Below are positions 1,617 to 43,401 of a DNA stretch of 64,000 nt, one piece after another (within the stretch, counting starts at the first letter, position 1; each line of letters begins with the position of its first letter). A program made the position numbers and the translations under genes. This DNA is from an uncultured Candidatus Rokubacteria bacterium (GTDB lineage: Bacteria > Methylomirabilota > Methylomirabilia > Rokubacteriales > DASRDR01): assembly GCA_963708025.1 (NCBI GenBank), contig CAVPSB010000032.1:1-64000 (forward strand). Reading direction: 5' to 3'. A model generated the notes under the pieces. That model worked only from the letters and a program-made list of their open reading frames with translations, did no database searches and was not told the DNA's origin.

Positions 1617-4094
<2,478 letters not shown>

Positions 4095-4478: not shown

Positions 4479-5267
4479 TCAGCGTCCCCGGGCCCGCCAC
4501 TCCACGGCGCCGACCTCCGCGAGCTGGCCGAGGAGCCGCGCGGCATCCGCGTCGGCCACGCCCGCCAGCGCTGCCGCCTCCGCCGTGGAGCGCACGCCGT
4601 CGAGGGCACCCAGCAGCCGCTCGACGGCCTCCGGACAGCGCACGGTCGTGACCCGGCCGCCCGGCGCCAGCGCGATCAGGAGCCGCGTCGGCGCGCGGAC
4701 CGGCTCGGGAAGCGACGTCTCGCCGCGACGGACCGCGGCGACGAGACCGGTGACGTCCCAGTCGAGCGCGCAGATCCGCGCGTGCGCCGAGCGCGCGGGC
4801 ATCACGCCGGTGCCGTCGCCCGTCGCGCGCCAGCGCCGGGGGCCGGCTTCGGCGCGGAAGAGCGCGCCCTCGTAGGCCACCAGGTCCCGCCCGTAGGTCA
4901 CCCCGCCGAGCGCCGCGGCGAGGGCCGTCTCGACGAGCGCCGCCACGCGCTCCGCGGTCTCCGCGGACCCCACCTCGGCGGCGTCGAGGAGCGCGTCGAA
5001 GGCCGGGGCGTCGATCACGCCCAGAGGATCCAGGCCCTGGCGGCGCGCCAGGACCCGGCTCGCGGCGAAGAGCCGCACGATCCGCTCCCGGTAGAAGTGG
5101 CGCCCCATGAACCGCGCCAGGCGCGCGAGCCGCTGACCGTCCGCCGCCCGGAGCACCGCCGCCTCTTCGGCGCCGAGAGGCGCGCCGCTCCCCTCGGGGA
5201 GCCGCCGCCGGAGGTCGGCGCTGGTGAGCACGCGGAGGAGCGCGTCGTGGACGGCGCGGCCCGTCAC
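4479..5267 (-). CDS. Putative MNIO partner protein (DUF2063/RRE-like)
   Basis: GTG start overlaps the MNIO TGA (GTGA); DLVAYEGA and LDWDVTGL...PTRLLI segments; C-terminal wHTH-like LDGVRSTAEAA...LLGQLAEVGAV. Confidence 0.65.
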   Translation of the reverse strand: MTGRAVHDALLRVLTSADLRRRLPEGSGAPLGAEEAAVLRAADGQRLARLARFMGRHFYRERIVRLFAASRVLARRQGLDPLGVIDAPAFDALLDAAEVGSAETAERVAALVETALAAALGGVTYGRDLVAYEGALFRAEAGPRRWRATGDGTGVMPARSAHARICALDWDVTGLVAAVRRGETSLPEPVRAPTRLLIALAPGGRVTTVRCPEAVERLLGALDGVRSTAEAAALAGVADADAARLLGQLAEVGAVEWRARGR

Positions 5268-6064
5268 GCCGGCAGTCCGAAGGCGTCCCGGATCGCGCCC
5301 ACTCCCGCCCGCAACGTCCCGGCGGTGAGGGCGGTCGAGAAGGCGTCGAACGTCACCGCGCGCAGGCCGGACGCCCGCCCCGCCGCGTACACCGCGAGGT
5401 CCAGAATCTCCCGGTCGGGGACGGCGGCGCCGATCCAGGGGCCGCCGAGGTCCCGGTCCGGCTCCACGCCCGCGACGTGGAGCTCCACGACCCGCTCGAG
5501 CGGGAGCGCGGCGACGAACTCGCGGGGCGGCACCCCGGCGTAGTACGCCGACAGCCAGGCGTGGGAGACGTCCAGCAGCATCCCGCAGCCGCTCCCGGCG
5601 TAGAAGCGGTGGACGAACTCGATCTCGCCGAGCTGCGGCAGCGGGAGGGCGAGATAGGTCGGGATGGGCTCGAGCACCAGCGGCAGCCCGAGGGCCTCGC
5701 GGAGGGCCCGGGCGTTGGCGACGTAGTCGGCCAGCAGGTCCTCGGTGTAGAGCGGGGGGAAGACGTAGTCGACGAACGCGGCGCCGTCGGTCGTGTGGAC
5801 GCGCTGGAGGTGCTCGGCGGCCCACGGCGAGCCGTAGAGCCCGACGAGCGACCGGGCCCGCTCGAGGGCGGCGCCCTCGAGCGGCTCGCTCAGCTGACCC
5901 AGGAAGTCGTGGAGCAGCAGGACGAAGCGCGCGCGGATCGCCGCGAAGTGCGGATCGTCGGGGCGTGGGGGATCGGCCATCGCGAGGTGCTGGATCAGCC
6001 CCTGCGCGTCCAGGGTCGCCGCCGCCAGGTGGGGATTGTAGAAGGCGCCGACCGAGATGGCCAT
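5264..6064 (-). CDS. DUF692 / multinuclear non-heme iron oxidase (MNIO), divergent
   Basis: AEHL, LVLEP, GCGMLLDVSH, LPLERVVELHVAG and VPD motifs typical of DUF692 TIM barrels. Confidence 0.85.
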   Translation of the reverse strand: MAISVGAFYNPHLAAATLDAQGLIQHLAMADPPRPDDPHFAAIRARFVLLLHDFLGQLSEPLEGAALERARSLVGLYGSPWAAEHLQRVHTTDGAAFVDYVFPPLYTEDLLADYVANARALREALGLPLVLEPIPTYLALPLPQLGEIEFVHRFYAGSGCGMLLDVSHAWLSAYYAGVPPREFVAALPLERVVELHVAGVEPDRDLGGPWIGAAVPDREILDLAVYAAGRASGLRAVTFDAFSTALTAGTLRAGVGAIRDAFGLPA

Positions 6065-6079
6065 CGGCTTACATGATAC

Positions 6080-6109
6080 GGCCCCGGGCGACGCGTGCCA
6101 CCCGGGGCC
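6080..6109. other. GC-rich stem-loop between precursor peptide and MNIO gene
   Basis: GGCCCCGGG-N12-CCCGGGGCC. Confidence 0.6.
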
Positions 6110-6112
6110 GCC

Positions 6113-6137
6113 GGAGCTCCTCAGCCGAGGAGCGTCC
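6113..6137 (-). promoter_or_regulatory. Candidate bacterial SECIS hairpin
   Basis: Minus strand GGAC-GCTCCTC-GGCT-GAGGAGC-TCC; loop begins 19 nt after the TGA at 6148-6146. Confidence 0.6.
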
Positions 6138-6191
6138 TAGTTGTGTCAGGTGGGGACGATCTCGAGTGTGTCGAACGATTTCCAGCTGCAT
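6137..6191 (-). CDS. Putative Sec-containing RiPP precursor MQLEI(V/F)DTLEIVPT-U-HN (needs 1-nt correction at ~6174-6176)
   Basis: Purine-rich RBS AGGAAAGGGGG; aligns without gaps to the 6385-6438 peptide with TGA opposite TGT(Cys); TAG at 6139-6137. Confidence 0.65.
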
Positions 6192-6384
6192 TGTCCCGCC
6201 CCCTTTCCTGAATGAAATGCGTTCCGAGCTCATCATCACCGAGCCATCGGTTTGGGCGCAACACATAATCGATGCGAATCGTCTTGGCCGATATCGCAGG
6301 CCGGCGAATCCGTTGACCCGGCGGCGGCGTCAAATTTACCGGGCGATTTTGCCCTCCCCTCCCACTCTCACCAAGGAGGTCCTG

Positions 6385-6438
6385 ATGGCCCTCGAAGTGC
6401 TCGACACGGTTGAAGTTCTCCCGACCTGTCACGCCTAA
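6385..6438 (+). CDS. Putative RiPP precursor peptide MALEVLDTVEVLPTCHA (17 aa)
   Basis: Strong RBS AAGGAGG at 6373-6379, ATG 6385, TAA 6436-6438; paralog on the opposite strand; next to MNIO. Confidence 0.75.
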   Translation: MALEVLDTVEVLPTCHA

Positions 6439-6457
6439 GCGACCCTGAACTGAGAGG

Positions 6458-6497
6458 GGACGACCCCGGGTGGGCGCGGCCTGCCCGGGGTCGTCCT
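6458..6497 (+). terminator. Long stem-loop after the Cys precursor
   Basis: GGACGACCCCGGGTGGG-cgcgg-CCTGCCCGGGGTCGTCC; weak U-tail. Confidence 0.5.
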
Positions 6498-6614
6498 GTC
6501 TGGGGAGTTTGATCGGGACCTCCCACCCACCCCCCAACCCCCTCCCCCACCGTCCGACGGCCTTCGGCCTTTGGCCGGGGGAGGAGAGCCTGAGGACCCG
6601 GCTTTCACGCGCTG

Positions 6615-8006
6615 TCAGTCGGAGCCCAGGAAGGCGCAGGCCAGCGCGCCGCCCCGGGCGACGTTGACAACCGGGGCCCGGCTGACCCGGCAGTGGAGAC
6701 CGAGGTCGCCCGGCGCGTAGAACAGGCCGAGGGAGAAGTGGCACGGCCCGGCGAAGAGCCGGCCGTCCCGGAGGTACGCCATGGGGCGCGGCGTCGCGGG
6801 GCGACGCTCCTGGACAACCCAGCCGCTCGGCTCCCGGAGCGCCCGCGCGATCCGCGCCTCCCACCGGGCCGCCGGGGTCTCACGGCCGAGCAGGATCCCC
6901 TCCCCGCTCGAGCCGACGTTGGGCTTGATGAGAAGCCCGGCGGCGTGGCGGCGGACGTACTCCGGCAGATCGACGCGCCGCCCGTCCGGCGCCTCCGTCA
7001 GCCGCGCGCCGAGGACTCGCGTCCATGGGACGACGGCGGCCAGCAGCCGGCGCTCGGCCGGGGAGAAGAGGCGCCGCCACGGGGGCCGAGTCAGGCACTC
7101 GAGGAGCCCCTTGTGGCCGAACTCGCCCGCCCCGTCGGGCAGCACGGCGCCCCGCGCCCGGAGGGTCCGGAGTCCCGCGAGACGGCGCCCCCGGGTCGGC
7201 GCCGGCCCCAGATCCTCGTAGGCGAGATCGCGGTACGCGAGGTCGACACGGACGTCTTTCAGGTAGACCTCGCCCCGGACCACGCGCAGCTCCTGCGGGC
7301 GCCCGTAGGCGACCCGGATCCCGCTGGCGGCGAAGGCGCGGAGGATCCGGGGCAGCTCGCTGTAGCCCGCCACCGGCGCTGGATCCTCGAGGAACGCGAC
7401 GCCCAGCGACCCGCGCCGACCGATCCGGCGGGCCGCCGCGAGCACCCAGCGGCGGGTCAGGTCCAGGAGGTCCGGCGGATCGGCGAGTCGTCGGCGCTCG
7501 GCGGGGCCGAGCAGCGACGGGAAGACCTCCGTCTTCAGGATGGCCACGCCGGCCGTGTGGTTGTAGAGCCCGGCGAGCGCGGTGGCGTTGGTCTCGAACA
7601 GGATCGGCCGCAGACCGCCGGGTCCGGCCGCCAGCCCCACGTCGGGCCGGATCATCAAGGCCCAGGACGCCGGGCGCGCGCCATCCGGCGAGAGCCAGCC
7701 CGCGGTGGTCTCCGAGAGCGGACAGAGGGCGCGGAAGCCGTCGAGGTCCGCGTGGTAGAGGGCGGGTGCGAGGGCCTGGAGGCGGTGGACGCAGTCGGCC
7801 AGCCGGCCGAGGGTCGGCAGGAGGCGGCGCGCCACCACGAAGGGCGTGAGCGCGATCGGGTGCGGCATCGGCCGCCCGCCGACCCGGTGGCGGTGGAAGA
7901 AGTCCACCGCCGCCTCGGCGCGCTCCACCCGGTCCAGGAGAGCGCGCCGCTCGCGCGGTGGCATGTCCAGGAGTCGTGCCGTGAGCGCGGCCTCGAGGGT
8001 CGGCAT
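6615..8006 (-). CDS. Circularly permuted ATP-grasp / glutathionylspermidine synthase-like ligase
   Basis: RPD...FETNA, VPWTRVL, LLIKPNVGSSGEGILLG, WVVQE, VVNVARGG. Confidence 0.8.
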   Translation of the reverse strand: MPTLEAALTARLLDMPPRERRALLDRVERAEAAVDFFHRHRVGGRPMPHPIALTPFVVARRLLPTLGRLADCVHRLQALAPALYHADLDGFRALCPLSETTAGWLSPDGARPASWALMIRPDVGLAAGPGGLRPILFETNATALAGLYNHTAGVAILKTEVFPSLLGPAERRRLADPPDLLDLTRRWVLAAARRIGRRGSLGVAFLEDPAPVAGYSELPRILRAFAASGIRVAYGRPQELRVVRGEVYLKDVRVDLAYRDLAYEDLGPAPTRGRRLAGLRTLRARGAVLPDGAGEFGHKGLLECLTRPPWRRLFSPAERRLLAAVVPWTRVLGARLTEAPDGRRVDLPEYVRRHAAGLLIKPNVGSSGEGILLGRETPAARWEARIARALREPSGWVVQERRPATPRPMAYLRDGRLFAGPCHFSLGLFYAPGDLGLHCRVSRAPVVNVARGGALACAFLGSD

Positions 8007-8080
8007 GGCGATCGGCGGAGAGGGTACCACGGCACGCCTGCCCGGTTGAACGCCGGTGCGCCTCCGGCTACCATCCGAGC

Positions 8081-8605
8081 ATGGCCCGGACGCAAAGCCC
8101 GCGGTCGCTGGCGCGATGGCGCCAGCGGTTCGTGGAGCGGATCGGCCGCTCGCGCGCGGCCACCCTCGCCCTCGTGGCCCGGATGCCGCAGGAGCTCGCC
8201 ACGCGGCCGCGGAGCCAGGGCGCCTGGTCCGTCAAGGACCTCCTGGCCCACATCGCCGCCTGGGAGGAAGAGGGCATCCGGCGTCTCCGGCTCATCGCCC
8301 AGGGCCACCCCGAGCGCGTGGTCTGGTACGACACGATGGCCGAAGTCAACCGGTACAACGCGCGCGCCGTGCGCGCCGCCCGGACGGCGTCGTTGCCGCG
8401 GCTCCTGACCCGGCTCGCGCGCGCCCGCGCCGGGCTCGTTCGAGCTCTCCGGCGCCTGCCGCCGCCGGCGCTCGCGGATCCGACCCACGCCCTGCCGGTC
8501 ACCGTCTGGCTCGAGGAGTTCGCCTTCACCCACGAGCGCGGCCACCGGCAGGAAGTCCGCGCCTGGCGGGCCGGCGAGCGCCAGCGCCGTTTGCACCGCA
8601 GATAG
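8081..8605 (+). CDS. DinB-family protein
   Basis: WSVKDLLAHIAAWE and HERGH motifs. Confidence 0.85.
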   Translation: MARTQSPRSLARWRQRFVERIGRSRAATLALVARMPQELATRPRSQGAWSVKDLLAHIAAWEEEGIRRLRLIAQGHPERVVWYDTMAEVNRYNARAVRAARTASLPRLLTRLARARAGLVRALRRLPPPALADPTHALPVTVWLEEFAFTHERGHRQEVRAWRAGERQRRLHRR

Positions 8606-8609
8606 AGCC

Positions 8610-9350
8610 ATGGGCGTCGATCCCTTCTTCAACGACCGCACCACCATCGACGTCTTCGAGCACGCCTTCTACGCCGGCGCCGAGGCGGCCGAAGAGGTGG
8701 CCGAGGTCCTGAGCTGGCGCCCGGTGCCGCGGCGCCTCCTCGACATCGGCTGCAACGGCGGCCTGCACGCCCTGGAGTGGGCTCGCCTCGGCGCCGAGGT
8801 GGTGGGTGTCAACGTCGCGCCCGTGGCCATCGACCTCGCGCGACGGCGCGCCGAGGGGCGGCCAGGCCCCCCGGTGCGCTTCGAGGTCGCCGACCTGCTG
8901 GAGGGCCGGTTCGACCGCTGGGGCCGATTCGATCTCGTCACCGCGCTCGGCGGTGTGTTCAACTGCATCGGGCGCGCCGACCTGGTGCCGGCGTTCCGGG
9001 CCGTCCGCGCCGCGCTGGCTCCCGACGGGGAGTTCGTCTTCGACGTGCTCAAGTGGTTCGACGGTGGGCGGAAGGTCTTCCTCCGGCGGGACGGCGCCGG
9101 CGCGCTGAAGATCGTCTGGCAATTCGACCTGGATCCCGTCCGGGGCCGGGGCCACGTCGTCGGCCACTTCCTCGAGACCGGCGCCGTCCAGGACTCCGAG
9201 CGCGCGTTCTACACGGCGCCCGAGGTGGGGACCTTGCTCGGCATCGCGGGGCTCGAGACGGTCGCCGTGGCCGGGAACCTCGCGTTCTCCGAGGACGCCG
9301 CGACCGCCGAGCCCAGTCTCTTCTTCCGCACCCGGATGCGCGACACCTGA
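8610..9350 (+). CDS. Class I SAM-dependent methyltransferase
   Basis: LLDIGCNGG, FDLV, LAPDGEFVFD. Confidence 0.88.
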   Translation: MGVDPFFNDRTTIDVFEHAFYAGAEAAEEVAEVLSWRPVPRRLLDIGCNGGLHALEWARLGAEVVGVNVAPVAIDLARRRAEGRPGPPVRFEVADLLEGRFDRWGRFDLVTALGGVFNCIGRADLVPAFRAVRAALAPDGEFVFDVLKWFDGGRKVFLRRDGAGALKIVWQFDLDPVRGRGHVVGHFLETGAVQDSERAFYTAPEVGTLLGIAGLETVAVAGNLAFSEDAATAEPSLFFRTRMRDT

Positions 9351-19979: not shown

Positions 19980-20504
19980 ATGGCAACGATCCGGGTCCTG
20001 AGCCCCGTCGCCGAGAGCAAGGTGAGCCAGGAGGCGCCGCGGCCGCTGCCCGCCGCGCTGTCCGGCGCGACGATCGGCTTCCTCGACAACACCAAGCCCA
20101 ACTTCGACCGGCTGCTGCGGACGATGGAGGCCCTCCTCCGCGAGCGCTACGGCATCGCGGGGGCGGTCTTCCAGAAGAAGTCGAACTCGTCCACCCCGGC
20201 GCCGCCCGAGGTGCTCGCCGCCCTGGCCGGCGTCGATCTCGTCGTCACCGGGTCCGCCGACTGAGGGTCCTGCACGTCGTGGAGTCTCCACGACGCAGTG
20301 ACCCTGGAGCGGCGCGGGATCCCGGCGGCCGTCGTCACCACCTCGGCCTTCGAGACGCTGGCGCACCACGAGGCCCACACCCTGGGGATGGAGGGACTCC
20401 CGCTGCTGGTCGTCGATCACCCGCTGGGCGGTGAGCCACCCGAGCGGGTCGCTGACAAGGCCGCCCGCGCCATCGCCCAGCTCGCGGCGCTCATGGGGCG
20501 GTAG
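19980..20504 (+). CDS. UGSC-family selenoprotein
   Basis: DNTKPN; GSAD-TGA(20262)-GSCTSWSLHD reads in frame into ERRGIP...HP; downstream hairpin. Confidence 0.88.
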
Positions 20505-36569: not shown

Positions 36570-37522
36570 TTGGAAAAGGTCGAGGCGCTCCCCCACGTCC
36601 TGCCCCGGGTCGCCACCCGGCGGCCCGGGCCGAGACGCCCGTGGGGCGCCATCGCCGTCTTCATCGGCCCCACCCTCGCGCTCTACCTCGCCTTCACGAT
36701 CTACCCGATCCTCGTCACCTTCTACAACAGCCTCCACACCCTCCGCATGGACCTCGGCATGCAATACGAGTGGGTCGGGCTCGCCCACTTCCGCGAGATC
36801 CTGACCGAGGACGAGGTCTTCTGGAAGGCGGCGGGCAACTCGCTCACCTGGGGCCTGGTGGCGCCGCTGATCGACATCCCGCTGGCCCTGCTCCTCGCGC
36901 TGGCGCTGGCCGGCCGGGTGCCGCTCGCCGCGGTTCTTCCGCACGGTGTGGTTCACCCCGGTCCTCATGTCCTACCCGGTGGTGGGCGTGATCTGGCTCT
37001 GGGTCTACAACTACGACTGGGGGATGGCCAACCTGCTCTTGCGATCCGTCGGCCTGGGCCAGTACGCCCAGGCCTGGCTGGCCAGCCCGGCCACCGCGCT
37101 GCCCGCCCTGATCCTGGTCACCACGTGGATGTTCGCCGGCTTCAACATGGTGGTCCTGCTGGCGGCGATCCACGCCATCCCCGGCGAGTACCTGGACGCC
37201 GCCCGGGTGGACGGCGCCGGCAGCGTCCGCCGCACGCTCCACATCGTCGTCCCGCTGGTGCGGCCGACCCTGGTCAACCTGGCGATCCTCGACTTCATCG
37301 GCAAGATGAAGCAGTTCGCGCTGGTCTGGGTCATGACCCGCGGGCGGCCCGATGTGGGGCACGGAGACGGTCGCGACCTACGTCATCAAGCGGGCCTTCG
37401 AGTGGAAGACGCTCGACCTCGGCTACCCCTCGGCGATCGCGGTCCTGTGGTTCGTCATCATCTTCGGGCTGTCCTACGGCCTGACGCGCGTGCTGCAGCG
37501 GCGGGAGACGCTCCAGTTTTGA
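36570..37522 (+). CDS. Carbohydrate ABC permease (frameshifts near 36930 and 37345)
   Basis: VGLAHF, DAARVDGA EAA motif, LGYPSAIA. Confidence 0.85.
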
Positions 37523-40598: not shown

Positions 40599-41150
40599 TC
40601 ATCCCCCGACCGGCTCGGCCAGGAGCTTCGCCAGCAGGGCTTCCGTCTCCTCGTAGGCGCCCTCCCCGATGTGCGCGTAGCGGACGATCCCCCGGCGATC
40701 GACGACGATCCGGGTCGGCCACGCCCAGACGCCGAAGCGCTTCCAGATCGCGGTGTCGTTGTCCTGGACGACCGGGTAGCGGATGTCGAGCCGCCGGACG
40801 GCCTCGACCACCTTGTCGTGGGGCTTCTCCCAGAGGAACTCCGGAGTGTGCACCCCGACGATCGTCAGGCCCTCGGCCTCGTACTTCCGGTGCCAGACCC
40901 GCAACTGCGGGATCACATTCTGGCAGTTGATTCAGCCGAAGGTCCAGAACTCGACGACCACCACCCGGCCGCGAAGGGTCCCGAGGGACAGGGGGGAGCT
41001 GTTGATCCAGGGCCTGCCGGTCAGCTCGGGCGCCGGCTGGCCCACCCGCGCCACGCGCTGGCCGAGCGCGCCCGGCGCCCCGGCGAGCGCCAGCGCCCCT
41101 GCCGTGGACAGCACGAGTAGCCCCCGCAGCGCTCCCGTCCGGATGCTCAT
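40599..41150 (-). CDS. Thioredoxin/redoxin (DipZ/TlpA-like), predicted selenoprotein UxxC
   Basis: EFWTFG-TGA(40934-40932)-INCQN continues in frame to GVHTPEF, WP, GEG. Confidence 0.88.
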
Positions 41151-41327: not shown

Positions 41328-43401
41328 CTACCGGTGGGCGAGCGACGTCCGGGCGGCGGCGACCACGGCTTCGAGCGTGAAGCCGAACTTCTTCTGCAGC
41401 TCCTTGAGCGGCGCCGAGGCGCCGAAGGTCTTCATCCCGACGATCTCGCCGGTGTTACCGACGTAACGCCGCCAGCCGAAGATGGACGCCTGCTCCACGG
41501 CGACCCGCGCGGTCACCGCGGGCGGCAGCACCGCGTCGCGGTACTCGGGCGCTCTGCTGGTCGAACAGCTCCCAGCGACGGCATGCTCACCACGCGGGCC
41601 TTGACGCCGTCCTTGGTGAGCTGCTCGTAGGCCGCGACGCAGAGCGACACCTCGCTGCCCGTGCCCATCAGGATGACGTCCGGCTTGCCGCCGGGCGCGT
41701 CGGCCAGGACGTAGGCGCCCTTGGCCACGCCCGCGGGCGGCGGCGAACTTCGTGCGGTCCAGCGTCGGCAGGGCCTGCCGGGACAGGATGAAGCACGACC
41801 GGCTCGTGCGTCAGCTGCATGATGAACCGCCAGGCCTCCAGCACCTCGTTGGCGATCGCCCGGCCGCAGCACGATCAGCCCGGGGATCGCGCGCAGCGAG
41901 GCGAGCTGCTCGATCGGCTGGTGGGTCGGCCCGTCCTCGCCCACGCCGATCGAGTCGTGGGTGAAGATGTAGATGACCGGGATCTCCATGAGGGCGGCGA
42001 GCCGGATGGGCGCCCGCATGTAGTCGCTGAAGATGAGGAAGCCCGACCCGTAGGGCCGGATCTTGGAGAGCGACAGCCCGTTCAGGATCGAGCCCATCGC
42101 GTGCTCGCGGATGCCGAAGTGGAAGTTGCGGCCCGCCGTGGTCGTCGCCGTGAAGTCGCCGGCGCCGTCGAAGGTGAGCCGGGTCTTGGTCGAGGGCGCC
42201 AGGTCGGCCGAGCCGCCGATCAGCCACGGCACGTTCTTGGCGATCGCGTTGAGGACCTTGCCGGAGGCGTCGCGGCCCGCGACCCCCTTGGGGTCGGCCG
42301 GGAACGGCTCGAGGTCCTTGTCCCAGCCCTCCGGGAAGCTGGCGCTGCTGCATCCGGTAGAGCTGGTCGGCCAGCTCGGGGTACTTCGCCTGGTACTCGT
42401 CGAACTTCGCCATCCAGGCCTCCCGCAGCGCCTTGCCCCGCGCGCCCATGCCGGCGCGGAAGTGCTCCCGCACGCCGTCGGGCACCAGGAACTTGGCGTC
42501 CTCGGGCCAGCCGTAGTTGCGCTTGGTCAGCCGGATCTCCTCCTCGCCGAGCGGCTCGCCGTGAGCGGCGTGCGTGTCCTGCTTGTTGGGCGCGCCCCAG
42601 GCGATGTGGCTGTCCACGATGATCAGGGTGGGACGCTCCTTCTCGTTCTTGAAGGTCTGGAAGGCCCGCCCCAGCATCTCGAGGTCGTTGGCGTCGCCGA
42701 CGCGGGTCACGTTCCAGCCGTAGGCGATGAACCGGGTGGCGACGTCGTCGCTGAACGCCCACTCGGTGTGGCCCTCGATCGTGATCTTGTTGTTGTCGTA
42801 GATCCAGCAGAGGTTGGACAGCCGCAGGTGACCGGCCAGCGAGGCCGCCTCGCCGGAGACGCCCTCCATCATGCAGCCGTCGCCGCAGAGCGCGTAGACG
42901 TCGTAGTCGAACATGTCGAAGCCCGGCCGGTTGAAGTAGCTGCGCCTGCCAGCGGCTGGCGATCGCCATGCCGACGCTGGTCGCCACGCCCTGCCCGAGC
43001 GGGCCGGTGGTCGTCTCCACGCCGGAGGTCCAGCGGTACTCGGGGTGACCGGGGCACTTGCTGTCGAGCTGGCGGAACTTCTTGATGTCGTCGAGCGCGA
43101 CCGAGCAGCTCGCCGAGCGTCTCGTACTGCGGGTTCACCGCCTTCACGCCGGTCAGGTGGAGCATCGAGTAGAGCAGCATCGAGGCGTGGCCGATCGACA
43201 GCACGAACCGGTCGCGGTTCGGCCAGATCGGGTCGCTCGGGGTCGAAGCGCAGGAACTGCTGCCAGAGGGAGTAGATCACCGGCGCCATCGCCATGGCCG
43301 TGCCGGGGTGGCCGGAGTTGGCCTTCTGCACGCGCGTCCATGGACAGGGTGCGGATCGTGTTGACGCAGAGCTGATCGATCTTCTTGCTGTCGTCTTTCA
43401 C
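41328..43401 (-). CDS. tkt: Transketolase (many frameshifts)
   Basis: [57 protein letters not shown] across frames. Confidence 0.92.

Follow-up and report, generated by a model that had tools for sequence, protein, structure and literature searches.

We analysed a 64,000-nucleotide stretch of the genome of an uncultured Candidatus Rokubacteria bacterium (GenBank assembly GCA_963708025.1, contig CAVPSB010000032.1, positions 1 to 64,000; hereafter the window) and found that a very small gene on its minus strand, at 6137..6191, is likely the selenocysteine (Sec)-encoding precursor gene of a three-gene operon for a ribosomally made, post-translationally modified peptide (RiPP), consisting of the precursor, an oxidative enzyme dependent on multinuclear non-heme iron (MNIO) and a TglI-like partner protein. 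A first-pass annotation of the window had read the locus as a very small selenopeptide with a hairpin resembling a selenocysteine insertion sequence (SECIS) beyond its stop codon. Sequence comparison supports this reading and supplies the MNIO RiPP context that the annotation lacked; a function for the peptide can be proposed because it would be the precursor of the MNIO/partner operon. The features at the center of this analysis are the following, where UTR stands for untranslated region and bSECIS for bacterial SECIS.

6137..6191, minus strand: putative Sec-form precursor gene, MQLEIV(+1 base)DTLEIVPT-U-HN-stop, from the sequence and its intact orthologs
6192..6212, minus strand: ribosome-binding region, purine-rich GGAAAGGGGGCGGGACA, abutting the ATG and near-identical in most Rokubacteria relatives
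6116..6133, minus strand: bSECIS-like hairpin GCTCCTC-GGCT-GAGGAGC in the 3' UTR, with a 7-bp stem and loop GGCU, conserved and paired in relatives
6385..6438, plus strand: Cys-form paralog MALEVLDTVEVLPTCHA, with an AGGAGG ribosome-binding site and a hairpin after it at 6459..6495

The mini-gene itself is a real observation, as each codon, the TGA, the stop and the hairpin described by the first-pass annotation were located at 6191..6116. On the minus strand, the codons run ATG (6191..6189), CAG, CTG, GAA, ATC, the four-base GTTC (6176..6173), GAC, ACA, CTC, GAG, ATC, GTC, CCC and ACC, and the 3' end consists of TGA (6148..6146), CAC, AAC and TAG (6139..6137). Either T at 6175/6174 may be counted as the surplus base by which GTC reads as GTTC. 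After removal of one base from GTTC, the 17-codon product is MQLEIVDTLEIVPT-U-HN, in which Sec is the third residue from the C-terminus. These repaired codons align to the Cys-form paralog without a gap, with the TGA opposite Cys and His next in both, as had been claimed; 9/17 residues are identical. Across the 8.17-Mb genome, the motif matched only two places, namely the Sec-form gene and the Cys paralog; since the element is moreover conserved in relatives, this is more than a chance resemblance. As assembled, the ATG frame enters an unrelated 65-residue open reading frame (ORF). An alternative start for the Sec part was considered and rejected, with none lying between the upstream stops and the core.

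To place the locus among relatives, we searched 40 of their genomes and found an ortholog of the MNIO (74-85% identity) in 10. In each of these 10, an intact ORF of 16-21 codons lies immediately upstream of it on the same strand; this ORF ends (V/L)PT-TGA-CAC-AA(C/T)-stop and is followed by the hairpin and by a second GC-rich hairpin. The Cys paralog, ...LPTCHA on the opposite strand, is also present in 2 of the 10 (L034/L049 and L035/L076). A wider scan, with one genome per species, yielded 79 loci in at least 5 phyla, drawn from Rokubacteria/Methylomirabilota, Planctomycetota, Acidobacteriota, Nitrospirota, Gemmatimonadota and Actinomycetota. The counts take in two loci from genomes flagged as unpublished (L084 and L087), and no claim hinges on either. 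We found 21 loci with the TGA form, 53 with the Cys form and 5 that were cut off upstream, with the TGA exactly at the Cys position. Cys and TGA alternate both between the paralogs of the window and across the 79 loci, and the state has changed at least twice on a quick maximum-likelihood tree of 78 MNIOs. An open frame from start through UGA to stop, which is missing from the window assembly, was found in all 10 relatives with the MNIO ortholog, at all 21 other TGA-form loci (in-frame ATG or GTG 13-26 codons before the TGA) and on an independent metagenome contig, L118, which reads ...GAA ATC GTC GAC.... The first-pass annotation had proposed looking for just such an intact frame.

The precursors of this family lack a separate leader and are built of 1-4 tandem units of ~15 residues, x-I-V-E-T-x-E-L-x-P-(T/S)-C-H-x; every listed unit keeps Cys-His unchanged. 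Wherever the TGA replaces the Cys codon, the peptide has a single unit. Outside Rokubacteria, the Cys forms have 2-4 tandem units, and all Sec forms are single-unit (loci L051-L116). Such an arrangement is in keeping with each UGA requiring its own SECIS just behind it, and Sec near the C-terminus means that the SECIS can lie in the UTR, free of coding constraint. The forms ending ...PT-U-HN-stop belong to Rokubacteria, Planctomycetota and two Acidobacteriota, and those ending ...PT-U-H-stop to seven Acidobacteria. Public databases list the MNIO as "UPF0276" and the Cys precursors as "hypothetical protein", one such precursor being on 414 contigs; no Pfam or NCBIfam family matched any of six Cys-form precursors taken from other loci.

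Several lines of sequence evidence support the prediction that the TGA is read as Sec: the Cys/TGA alternation, a conserved tail, the hairpin, the distribution of selA and the MNIO tree agree. The Sec machinery, which the first-pass annotation had named as a check, is all in the genome: selB (372 bits), selA (598 bits) and tRNA-Sec (76 bits) lie together on the contig of the window, ~140 kb away, and selD (398 bits) is on a different contig and itself contains one in-frame TGA. In 22/22 forms, the TGA is followed by CAC, in some also by AAY, before an in-frame stop is reached. The stop varies between TAG, TGA and TAA, AAC is once AAT, and in length the tails match those of the Cys forms (CH-stop and CHx-stop). 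Were the TGA a plain stop, the His and Asn codons would be unconstrained, and their conservation thus supports the Sec reading. We found selA above cut-off in 20/21 TGA-form genomes and in none of the 11 Nitrospirota genomes, which carry Cys forms. No P value was calculated for the association between selA and the TGA, since related genomes are not independent.

Two further selenoprotein genes are likely present in the window, each with a hairpin after its TGA: ...TGSAD-U-GSC... at 20262 (plus strand) and a thioredoxin-like ...EFWTFG-U-INC... at 40932-40934 (minus strand). The first-pass annotation had likened the spacing of the mini-gene hairpin to that of a UGSC and a PCYCGC gene; the former comparison holds (TGA at 20262 on the plus strand, loop ~20 nt away), and the latter falls away, as the PCYCGC motif was not found in any of the six frames. 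Other in-frame TGAs in the window were listed by a codon-phase model.

The hairpin at 6133..6116 starts its stem 12 nt past the UGA and 3 nt past the UAG, and has its loop 19 nt past the UGA within the 3' UTR, as the first-pass annotation stated. Folded alone, it has a free energy of -11.6 kcal/mol. The bSECIS consensus, as given in a selenoproteome review (PMC13188914), is a loop of 3-9 nt with G in the first two loop positions, a stem of 4-16 bp, a UGA-to-loop distance of 16-37 nt and a minimum free energy of at most -7.5 kcal/mol. The window hairpin satisfies each of these (GGCU loop, 7 bp, 19 nt, -11.6 kcal/mol). A strict scan found a perfect hairpin by bSECIS criteria starting 8-16 nt after the codon in 19/22 TGA forms versus 2/55 Cys forms. 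The remaining 3 TGA forms have a bulged stem (L043 and L058) or a 17-nt spacer (L079), so that all 22 have a hairpin, with the upper stem starting 10-17 nt past the TGA, mostly 12-13. Conservation of TGA-CAC together with the hairpin, the absence of which the first-pass annotation had named as grounds for rejection, is therefore found in homologs. In most forms, the distance from UGA to stem stays at 12-13 nt both with a stop one codon on and with a stop two codons on; the hairpin is therefore anchored to the UGA and not to the stop. Stem sequences vary by clade (GCUCCUC, GCCUCC, CCUCCG and UCCGGC), and in a fitted alignment 96.1% of 102 stem cells pair, compared to 50-70% with slid partner columns. 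A covariance model trained on Rokubacteria recovered 5 U-H-N sites outside Rokubacteria at E values of 5e-4 to 2.5e-3 in 632 kb, with the next best match at 16 bits. Searching 5800-6700 against Rfam at permissive E values gave no SECIS or other credible family.

A number of observations weigh against this interpretation. In the window assembly, the frame is broken: after its upstream stops, the DTLEIVPT-TGA part has no in-frame ATG, GTG or TTG. The guess of the first-pass annotation that the extra base is probably a read error stands as the likelier explanation and not as a proven one, as the best-matching run, X1 (0.41 of sampled words), has no cover at 6174 and the error is inferred. On the side of Sec insertion, selA was not seen in one TGA-form genome (G095, a low-coverage metagenome-assembled genome), and it is present in 42/58 genomes without a TGA form. 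Many Sec-capable genomes thus keep Cys, which indicates that Sec capacity is necessary and not sufficient. Covariation in the hairpin is modest: 1/7 stem pairs shows changes of both partners (5 cells), and 3 pairs are without any variation; this count is from 16 sequences only, since MAFFT left the hairpins of different clades out of register. A CUCC/GGAG core is common to the stems of Rokubacteria, Planctomycetota and L048/L050, and the covariance model missed the 7 acidobacterial U-H-stop forms. The one contig from an RNA library that spans the peptide gene and the MNIO gene (X15, described below) belongs to a relative and may be DNA. Finally, an MNIO acting productively on Sec would be without precedent, and the MNIO with the closest solved structure, TglHI, is inhibited by a TglA analogue that carries selenocysteine, according to the abstract of PMC9016710.

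Whether the window copy is intact depends on the extra T in GTTC, which, judged from comparison with other sequences, is most probably an assembly indel, the real gene then probably being intact. The first-pass annotation had called indels common in this window, and this proved to be so. The transketolase gene (43331..41573, minus strand) is in at least 6 frame pieces, which match Transketolase_N 18-48, 49-79, 81-131 and 135-329, then Transket_pyr and Transketolase_C, in order. A DUF87 (HerA-like) gene of ~870 residues (1617-4091, plus strand) is a single ORF of 873-945 residues in three relatives, and this ORF aligns to the window as four pieces in different frames, giving 3 shifts between 1635 and 4091. 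An ABC permease gene (36576-37516, plus strand) is split by 2 frameshifts. At least 8 frameshifts are confirmed by homology (at least 5 in transketolase and 3 in DUF87), and the codon-phase model places 12 frame switches without a nearby stop in the 64 kb. Contigs of X2, X3 and the RNA library X15 (~96-98% identical) have one base fewer at 6174, and a second, more divergent X15 contig has one base fewer at 6175. Four near relatives without the extra base in combination with an indel-rich window make an assembly error the likeliest explanation, and the small 57-nt target of the gene, set against a high local error rate, argues the same way. It is unlikely, though not negligibly so, that the family is real and the window copy is a true recent pseudogene by 1-base insertion, with the Cys paralog at 6385..6438 supplying the MNIO substrate. 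The insertion is after all present in the assembly, a Cys paralog that is intact and has a strong ribosome-binding site is found at a distance of 190 nt, and the window differs from all compared contigs by substitutions too, which suggests a lineage of its own. Yet the ribosome-binding region, TGA, His-Asn, stop and both hairpins are all untouched, a real mutation would have had to strike within a mere 57 nt, the 96-98% identical relatives lack the base, and the homology-confirmed frameshifts and phase-model switches in the same window point to assembly error. That the extra base is real and bypassed by programmed ribosomal frameshifting is extremely improbable: a shift near GTT-C would restore the frame, which is the sole point in its favor, whereas we found no conserved slippery motif or stimulatory structure, and the frame is simply unbroken in all 21 other TGA forms, in the 10 relatives and in L118.

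A different objection concerns the TGA itself, which might be an ordinary stop, so that the peptide ends ...VPT and the hairpin, instead of being a SECIS, attenuates transcription or acts on RNA stability. Hairpins often follow RiPP precursor genes, this operon has a second hairpin, some Nitrospirota Cys forms have a weak small hairpin before a terminator, and TGA readthrough is predicted from sequence. We nevertheless consider this very improbable. Ending there would cost the peptide Cys-His, the sole invariant residues of its family, and the CAC (AAY) and in-frame stop that follow the TGA in every form across 4 phyla would go unexplained, as would the fixed distance from TGA to hairpin and the restriction of the TGA to selA-positive genomes. 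There is, in addition, no U-tract 3' of the hairpin at 6133..6116. Sec insertion at the TGA therefore remains the preferred reading, and the operon around the gene bears on what the peptide would be for.

The second hairpin and the neighboring genes are as follows (SAM, S-adenosylmethionine).

6080..6109, minus strand: second hairpin, stronger, with a 9-bp GC stem, between precursor and MNIO start; kept in relatives with differing stems
5264..6064, minus strand: MNIO (DUF692, MbnB/TglH/ChrH family) peptide-modifying enzyme, 266 aa; PF05114 E value 1.2e-25, 90.7 bits versus a cut-off of 25
4479..5267, minus strand: partner protein, 262 aa, with a TglI/NGO1945 (DUF2063)-like fold; its GTG start overlaps the MNIO stop (GTGA)
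6615..8030, minus strand: glutathione-synthetase-like ligase (circularly permuted ATP-grasp), 471 aa; weak CP_ATPgrasp_2 match, upstream on the same strand
8081..9350, plus strand: DinB_2 protein (8081..8605) and class I SAM methyltransferase (8610..9350), in synteny with the cluster in several Rokubacteria loci

The MNIO gene begins 73 nt past the precursor stop on the same strand. Its product scores 87 bits against a cut-off of 400 for ApyH, 77 against 310 for BufB and 57 against 360 for HvfB in NCBIfam; with scores this far under the cut-offs, it belongs to a subfamily apart from these curated ones. Its best solved relatives by sequence are 8hci chain D (from the TglHI holoenzyme entries) and 3bww, and alignments to both place His, His, Glu, Asp and His in shared columns, as candidate iron ligands. 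The 262-aa partner has no Pfam match of its own, and NGO1945_C matched 3/27 of its homologs. Its model has a predicted local distance difference test (pLDDT) score of 94.4, and the top Foldseek matches are 8hi7_A (a TglHI entry, E value 1.6e-5), 8hci_A and 3dee (NGO1945, E value 4e-3). In this model, the C-terminus is a predicted winged-helix domain resembling a RiPP recognition element (RRE). The partner follows the MNIO in nearly all loci, and different phyla share the three-gene core formed by precursor, MNIO and partner. This is the standard MNIO RiPP layout, and the position of the peptide gene upstream of an MNIO and a TglI-like partner points to a RiPP precursor. For the second hairpin, the probable role is that of a partial terminator or of an element for RNA stability, by which the ratio of precursor to enzyme would be set.

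Further upstream, the model of the 471-aa ligase (pLDDT 74.9) matches 2hgs in Foldseek (E value 4e-14) and resembles eukaryote-type glutathione synthetases; the ligase is linked to the cluster only in Rokubacteria (9 loci). The DinB_2 protein and the SAM methyltransferase are candidate pathway members by synteny only. Among the proteins scanned between 4479 and 9350 (MNIO, partner, ATP-grasp-like ligase, DinB_2 and methyltransferase), there is no radical SAM/SPASM maturase. Just 5' of the MNIO start, a conserved string GTATCATGT lies at 6068-6079 on the minus strand; here the window and two relatives have a minimal ORF, an ATG with a stop as its next codon, 5 nt ahead of the MNIO ATG, and three other relatives have ATG-TTC in its place. 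Between the hairpin of the Cys peptide and the 471-aa gene, there is a C-rich/G-rich repeat of ~70 nt (6513-6582) with ~290 BLAST matches across the genome, which resembles repetitive extragenic palindromic (REP) elements or miniature inverted-repeat transposable elements (MITEs). This repeat is missing from contigs of runs X1, X2 and X3, in which 6507 is joined to 6614. In the soil metatranscriptome X15, one contig (record 12, 244 nt, 4 substitutions and 1 gap) covers 5952-6196 of a close relative and spans the peptide gene and the first ~37 codons of the MNIO gene. It is a weak hint of co-transcription of the two, with DNA carry-over possible.

From these parts, we propose how the peptide would be made. 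A ribosome would start at the ATG at 6191 and, at the UGA at 6148, the 3' UTR hairpin 12 nt downstream would recruit SelB with Sec-tRNA(Sec), as SelB/SECIS biology would have it; the hairpin lies in the 3' UTR because only His, Asn and the stop follow the UGA. With Sec inserted and His and Asn added, the UAG would terminate synthesis and release a 17-residue peptide ending ...VPT-U-HN. By analogy with other MNIO systems, the RRE-like domain of the partner may bind the hydrophobic/acidic, beta-strand-prone N-terminal part, LEIVDTLEIV. The iron enzyme would then oxidize the Sec of the invariant P-T-(C/U)-H core; in the paralog and other phyla, Cys would be its target instead. Taking Cys-acting MNIOs as the default, the product may be a heterocycle or a thio(seleno)amide-type metal-binding group beside the His imidazole.

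Methanobactin (MbnABC), the bufferins (BufB) and HvfA/oxazolins are known systems in which an MNIO and a DUF2063-type partner turn conserved Cys, sometimes in repeats, into a metal-binding heterocycle, thioamide or thiooxazole. In contrast to these, the present family has a P-T-C-H core with an invariant His and lacks a signal peptide or DUF2282-type domain; we found no Sec forms of these systems reported in the literature. The TglA/TglHI system of Pseudomonas syringae, which makes 3-thiaglutamate, is similar in that it provides the closest solved chains (8hci_D for the MNIO and 8hi7_A for the partner) and acts on Cys at the extreme C-terminus of a small peptide. However, the Cys of TglA is added post-translationally by a tRNA-dependent ligase, whereas in the window family Cys or Sec is encoded and followed by His.

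One natural RiPP with Sec, and no other, came to light in our literature search. In selenobacteriocin (TIGR04081), matured by SbtM, the core Sec is encoded by UGA with the SECIS right after it, and Cys and Sec are both converted (PMC11002830). The 2026 selenoproteome review names one RiPP-type family, selenobacteriocin, matured by a radical SAM enzyme (PMC13188914). The window gene shares with it a RiPP precursor with a UGA-encoded core Sec and an adjacent SECIS. It differs in its enzymes and core, having an MNIO, a TglI-like partner and P-T-U-H instead of a radical SAM/SPASM maturase and an SGUG motif, and in its layout, with peptides of 16-26 residues, no separate leader and a SECIS wholly in the 3' UTR. 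Sec near a C-terminus also has parallels, as the UXX-star, KCU-star and GUXX-star selenoproteins, named in the same review (PMC13188914), carry Sec 1-3 residues from the C-terminus, from which it follows that their SECIS must lie beyond the stop codon. These are folded proteins or domains, whereas the window gene encodes a 17-residue putative enzyme substrate. The strings TUH, UHN, PTU, MNIO and DUF692 are all absent from the main text of that review. More broadly, our literature search found no natural Sec substrate of an MNIO and no paper or curated family for the precursor, although supplementary tables might list the subfamily.

The genes beside the cluster suggest a further idea about the product, which we offer as speculation that is unlikely to hold. 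The Cys-His or Sec-His pair could serve as raw material for the product instead of only as a metal site, with the MNIO transferring or cross-linking the S or Se of residue i to the imidazole of His i+1. Equally speculative is the step after it, in which accessory enzymes would release and tailor a small thio-/seleno-imidazole, similar to ergothioneine or selenoneine and made by a ribosomal route. Methyltransf_33 (PF10017; EgtD/EasF-type, amino-acid alpha-N-methyltransferase) lies beside the cluster in 62/79 loci and in every phylum except Rokubacteria (for example L054:2686-3633, L098:1723-2724 and L046:2738-3970, among loci L045-L117). Where it lies relative to the cluster varies from phylum to phylum, a point in favor of functional linkage, and this linkage together with the invariant Cys-His is what suggests a small thio-/seleno-imidazole product. 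These proteins score 58-69 bits versus an EgtD cut-off of 291. In descending order of frequency, other common neighbors are an ABC ATPase (41 loci), an aldo-keto reductase (33), an ArsC-like protein (20) and an alpha/beta hydrolase (18), and DinB-like proteins are also among the accessory genes. The genome of the window has no Methyltransf_33 gene, and Rokubacteria carry the glutathione-synthetase-like ligase instead. Our literature search for links between MNIO/DUF692 and ergothioneine or EgtD found nothing relevant; a paper on thiohistidine dipeptides, by its abstract, pairs sulfoxide synthases with ATP-grasp enzymes and not with MNIOs. If the idea were true, a UGA in the genetic code would choose selenium over sulfur.

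Taken as a Sec-containing precursor family that is new for a known enzyme class, these genes appear to encode the first family of natural Sec-containing substrates for MNIO enzymes. They would offer a clean example of a bacterial SECIS that lies entirely in the 3' UTR, in genes of 16-26 codons that gene callers and selenoprotein pipelines miss. Natural ribosomal selenium peptides are very rare, and this family would add a second RiPP family, unrelated to the first and widespread among soil bacteria from at least 4 phyla. Finally, the Cys and Sec versions stand side by side in three genomes, which may provide a built-in comparison of sulfur and selenium within one enzyme.

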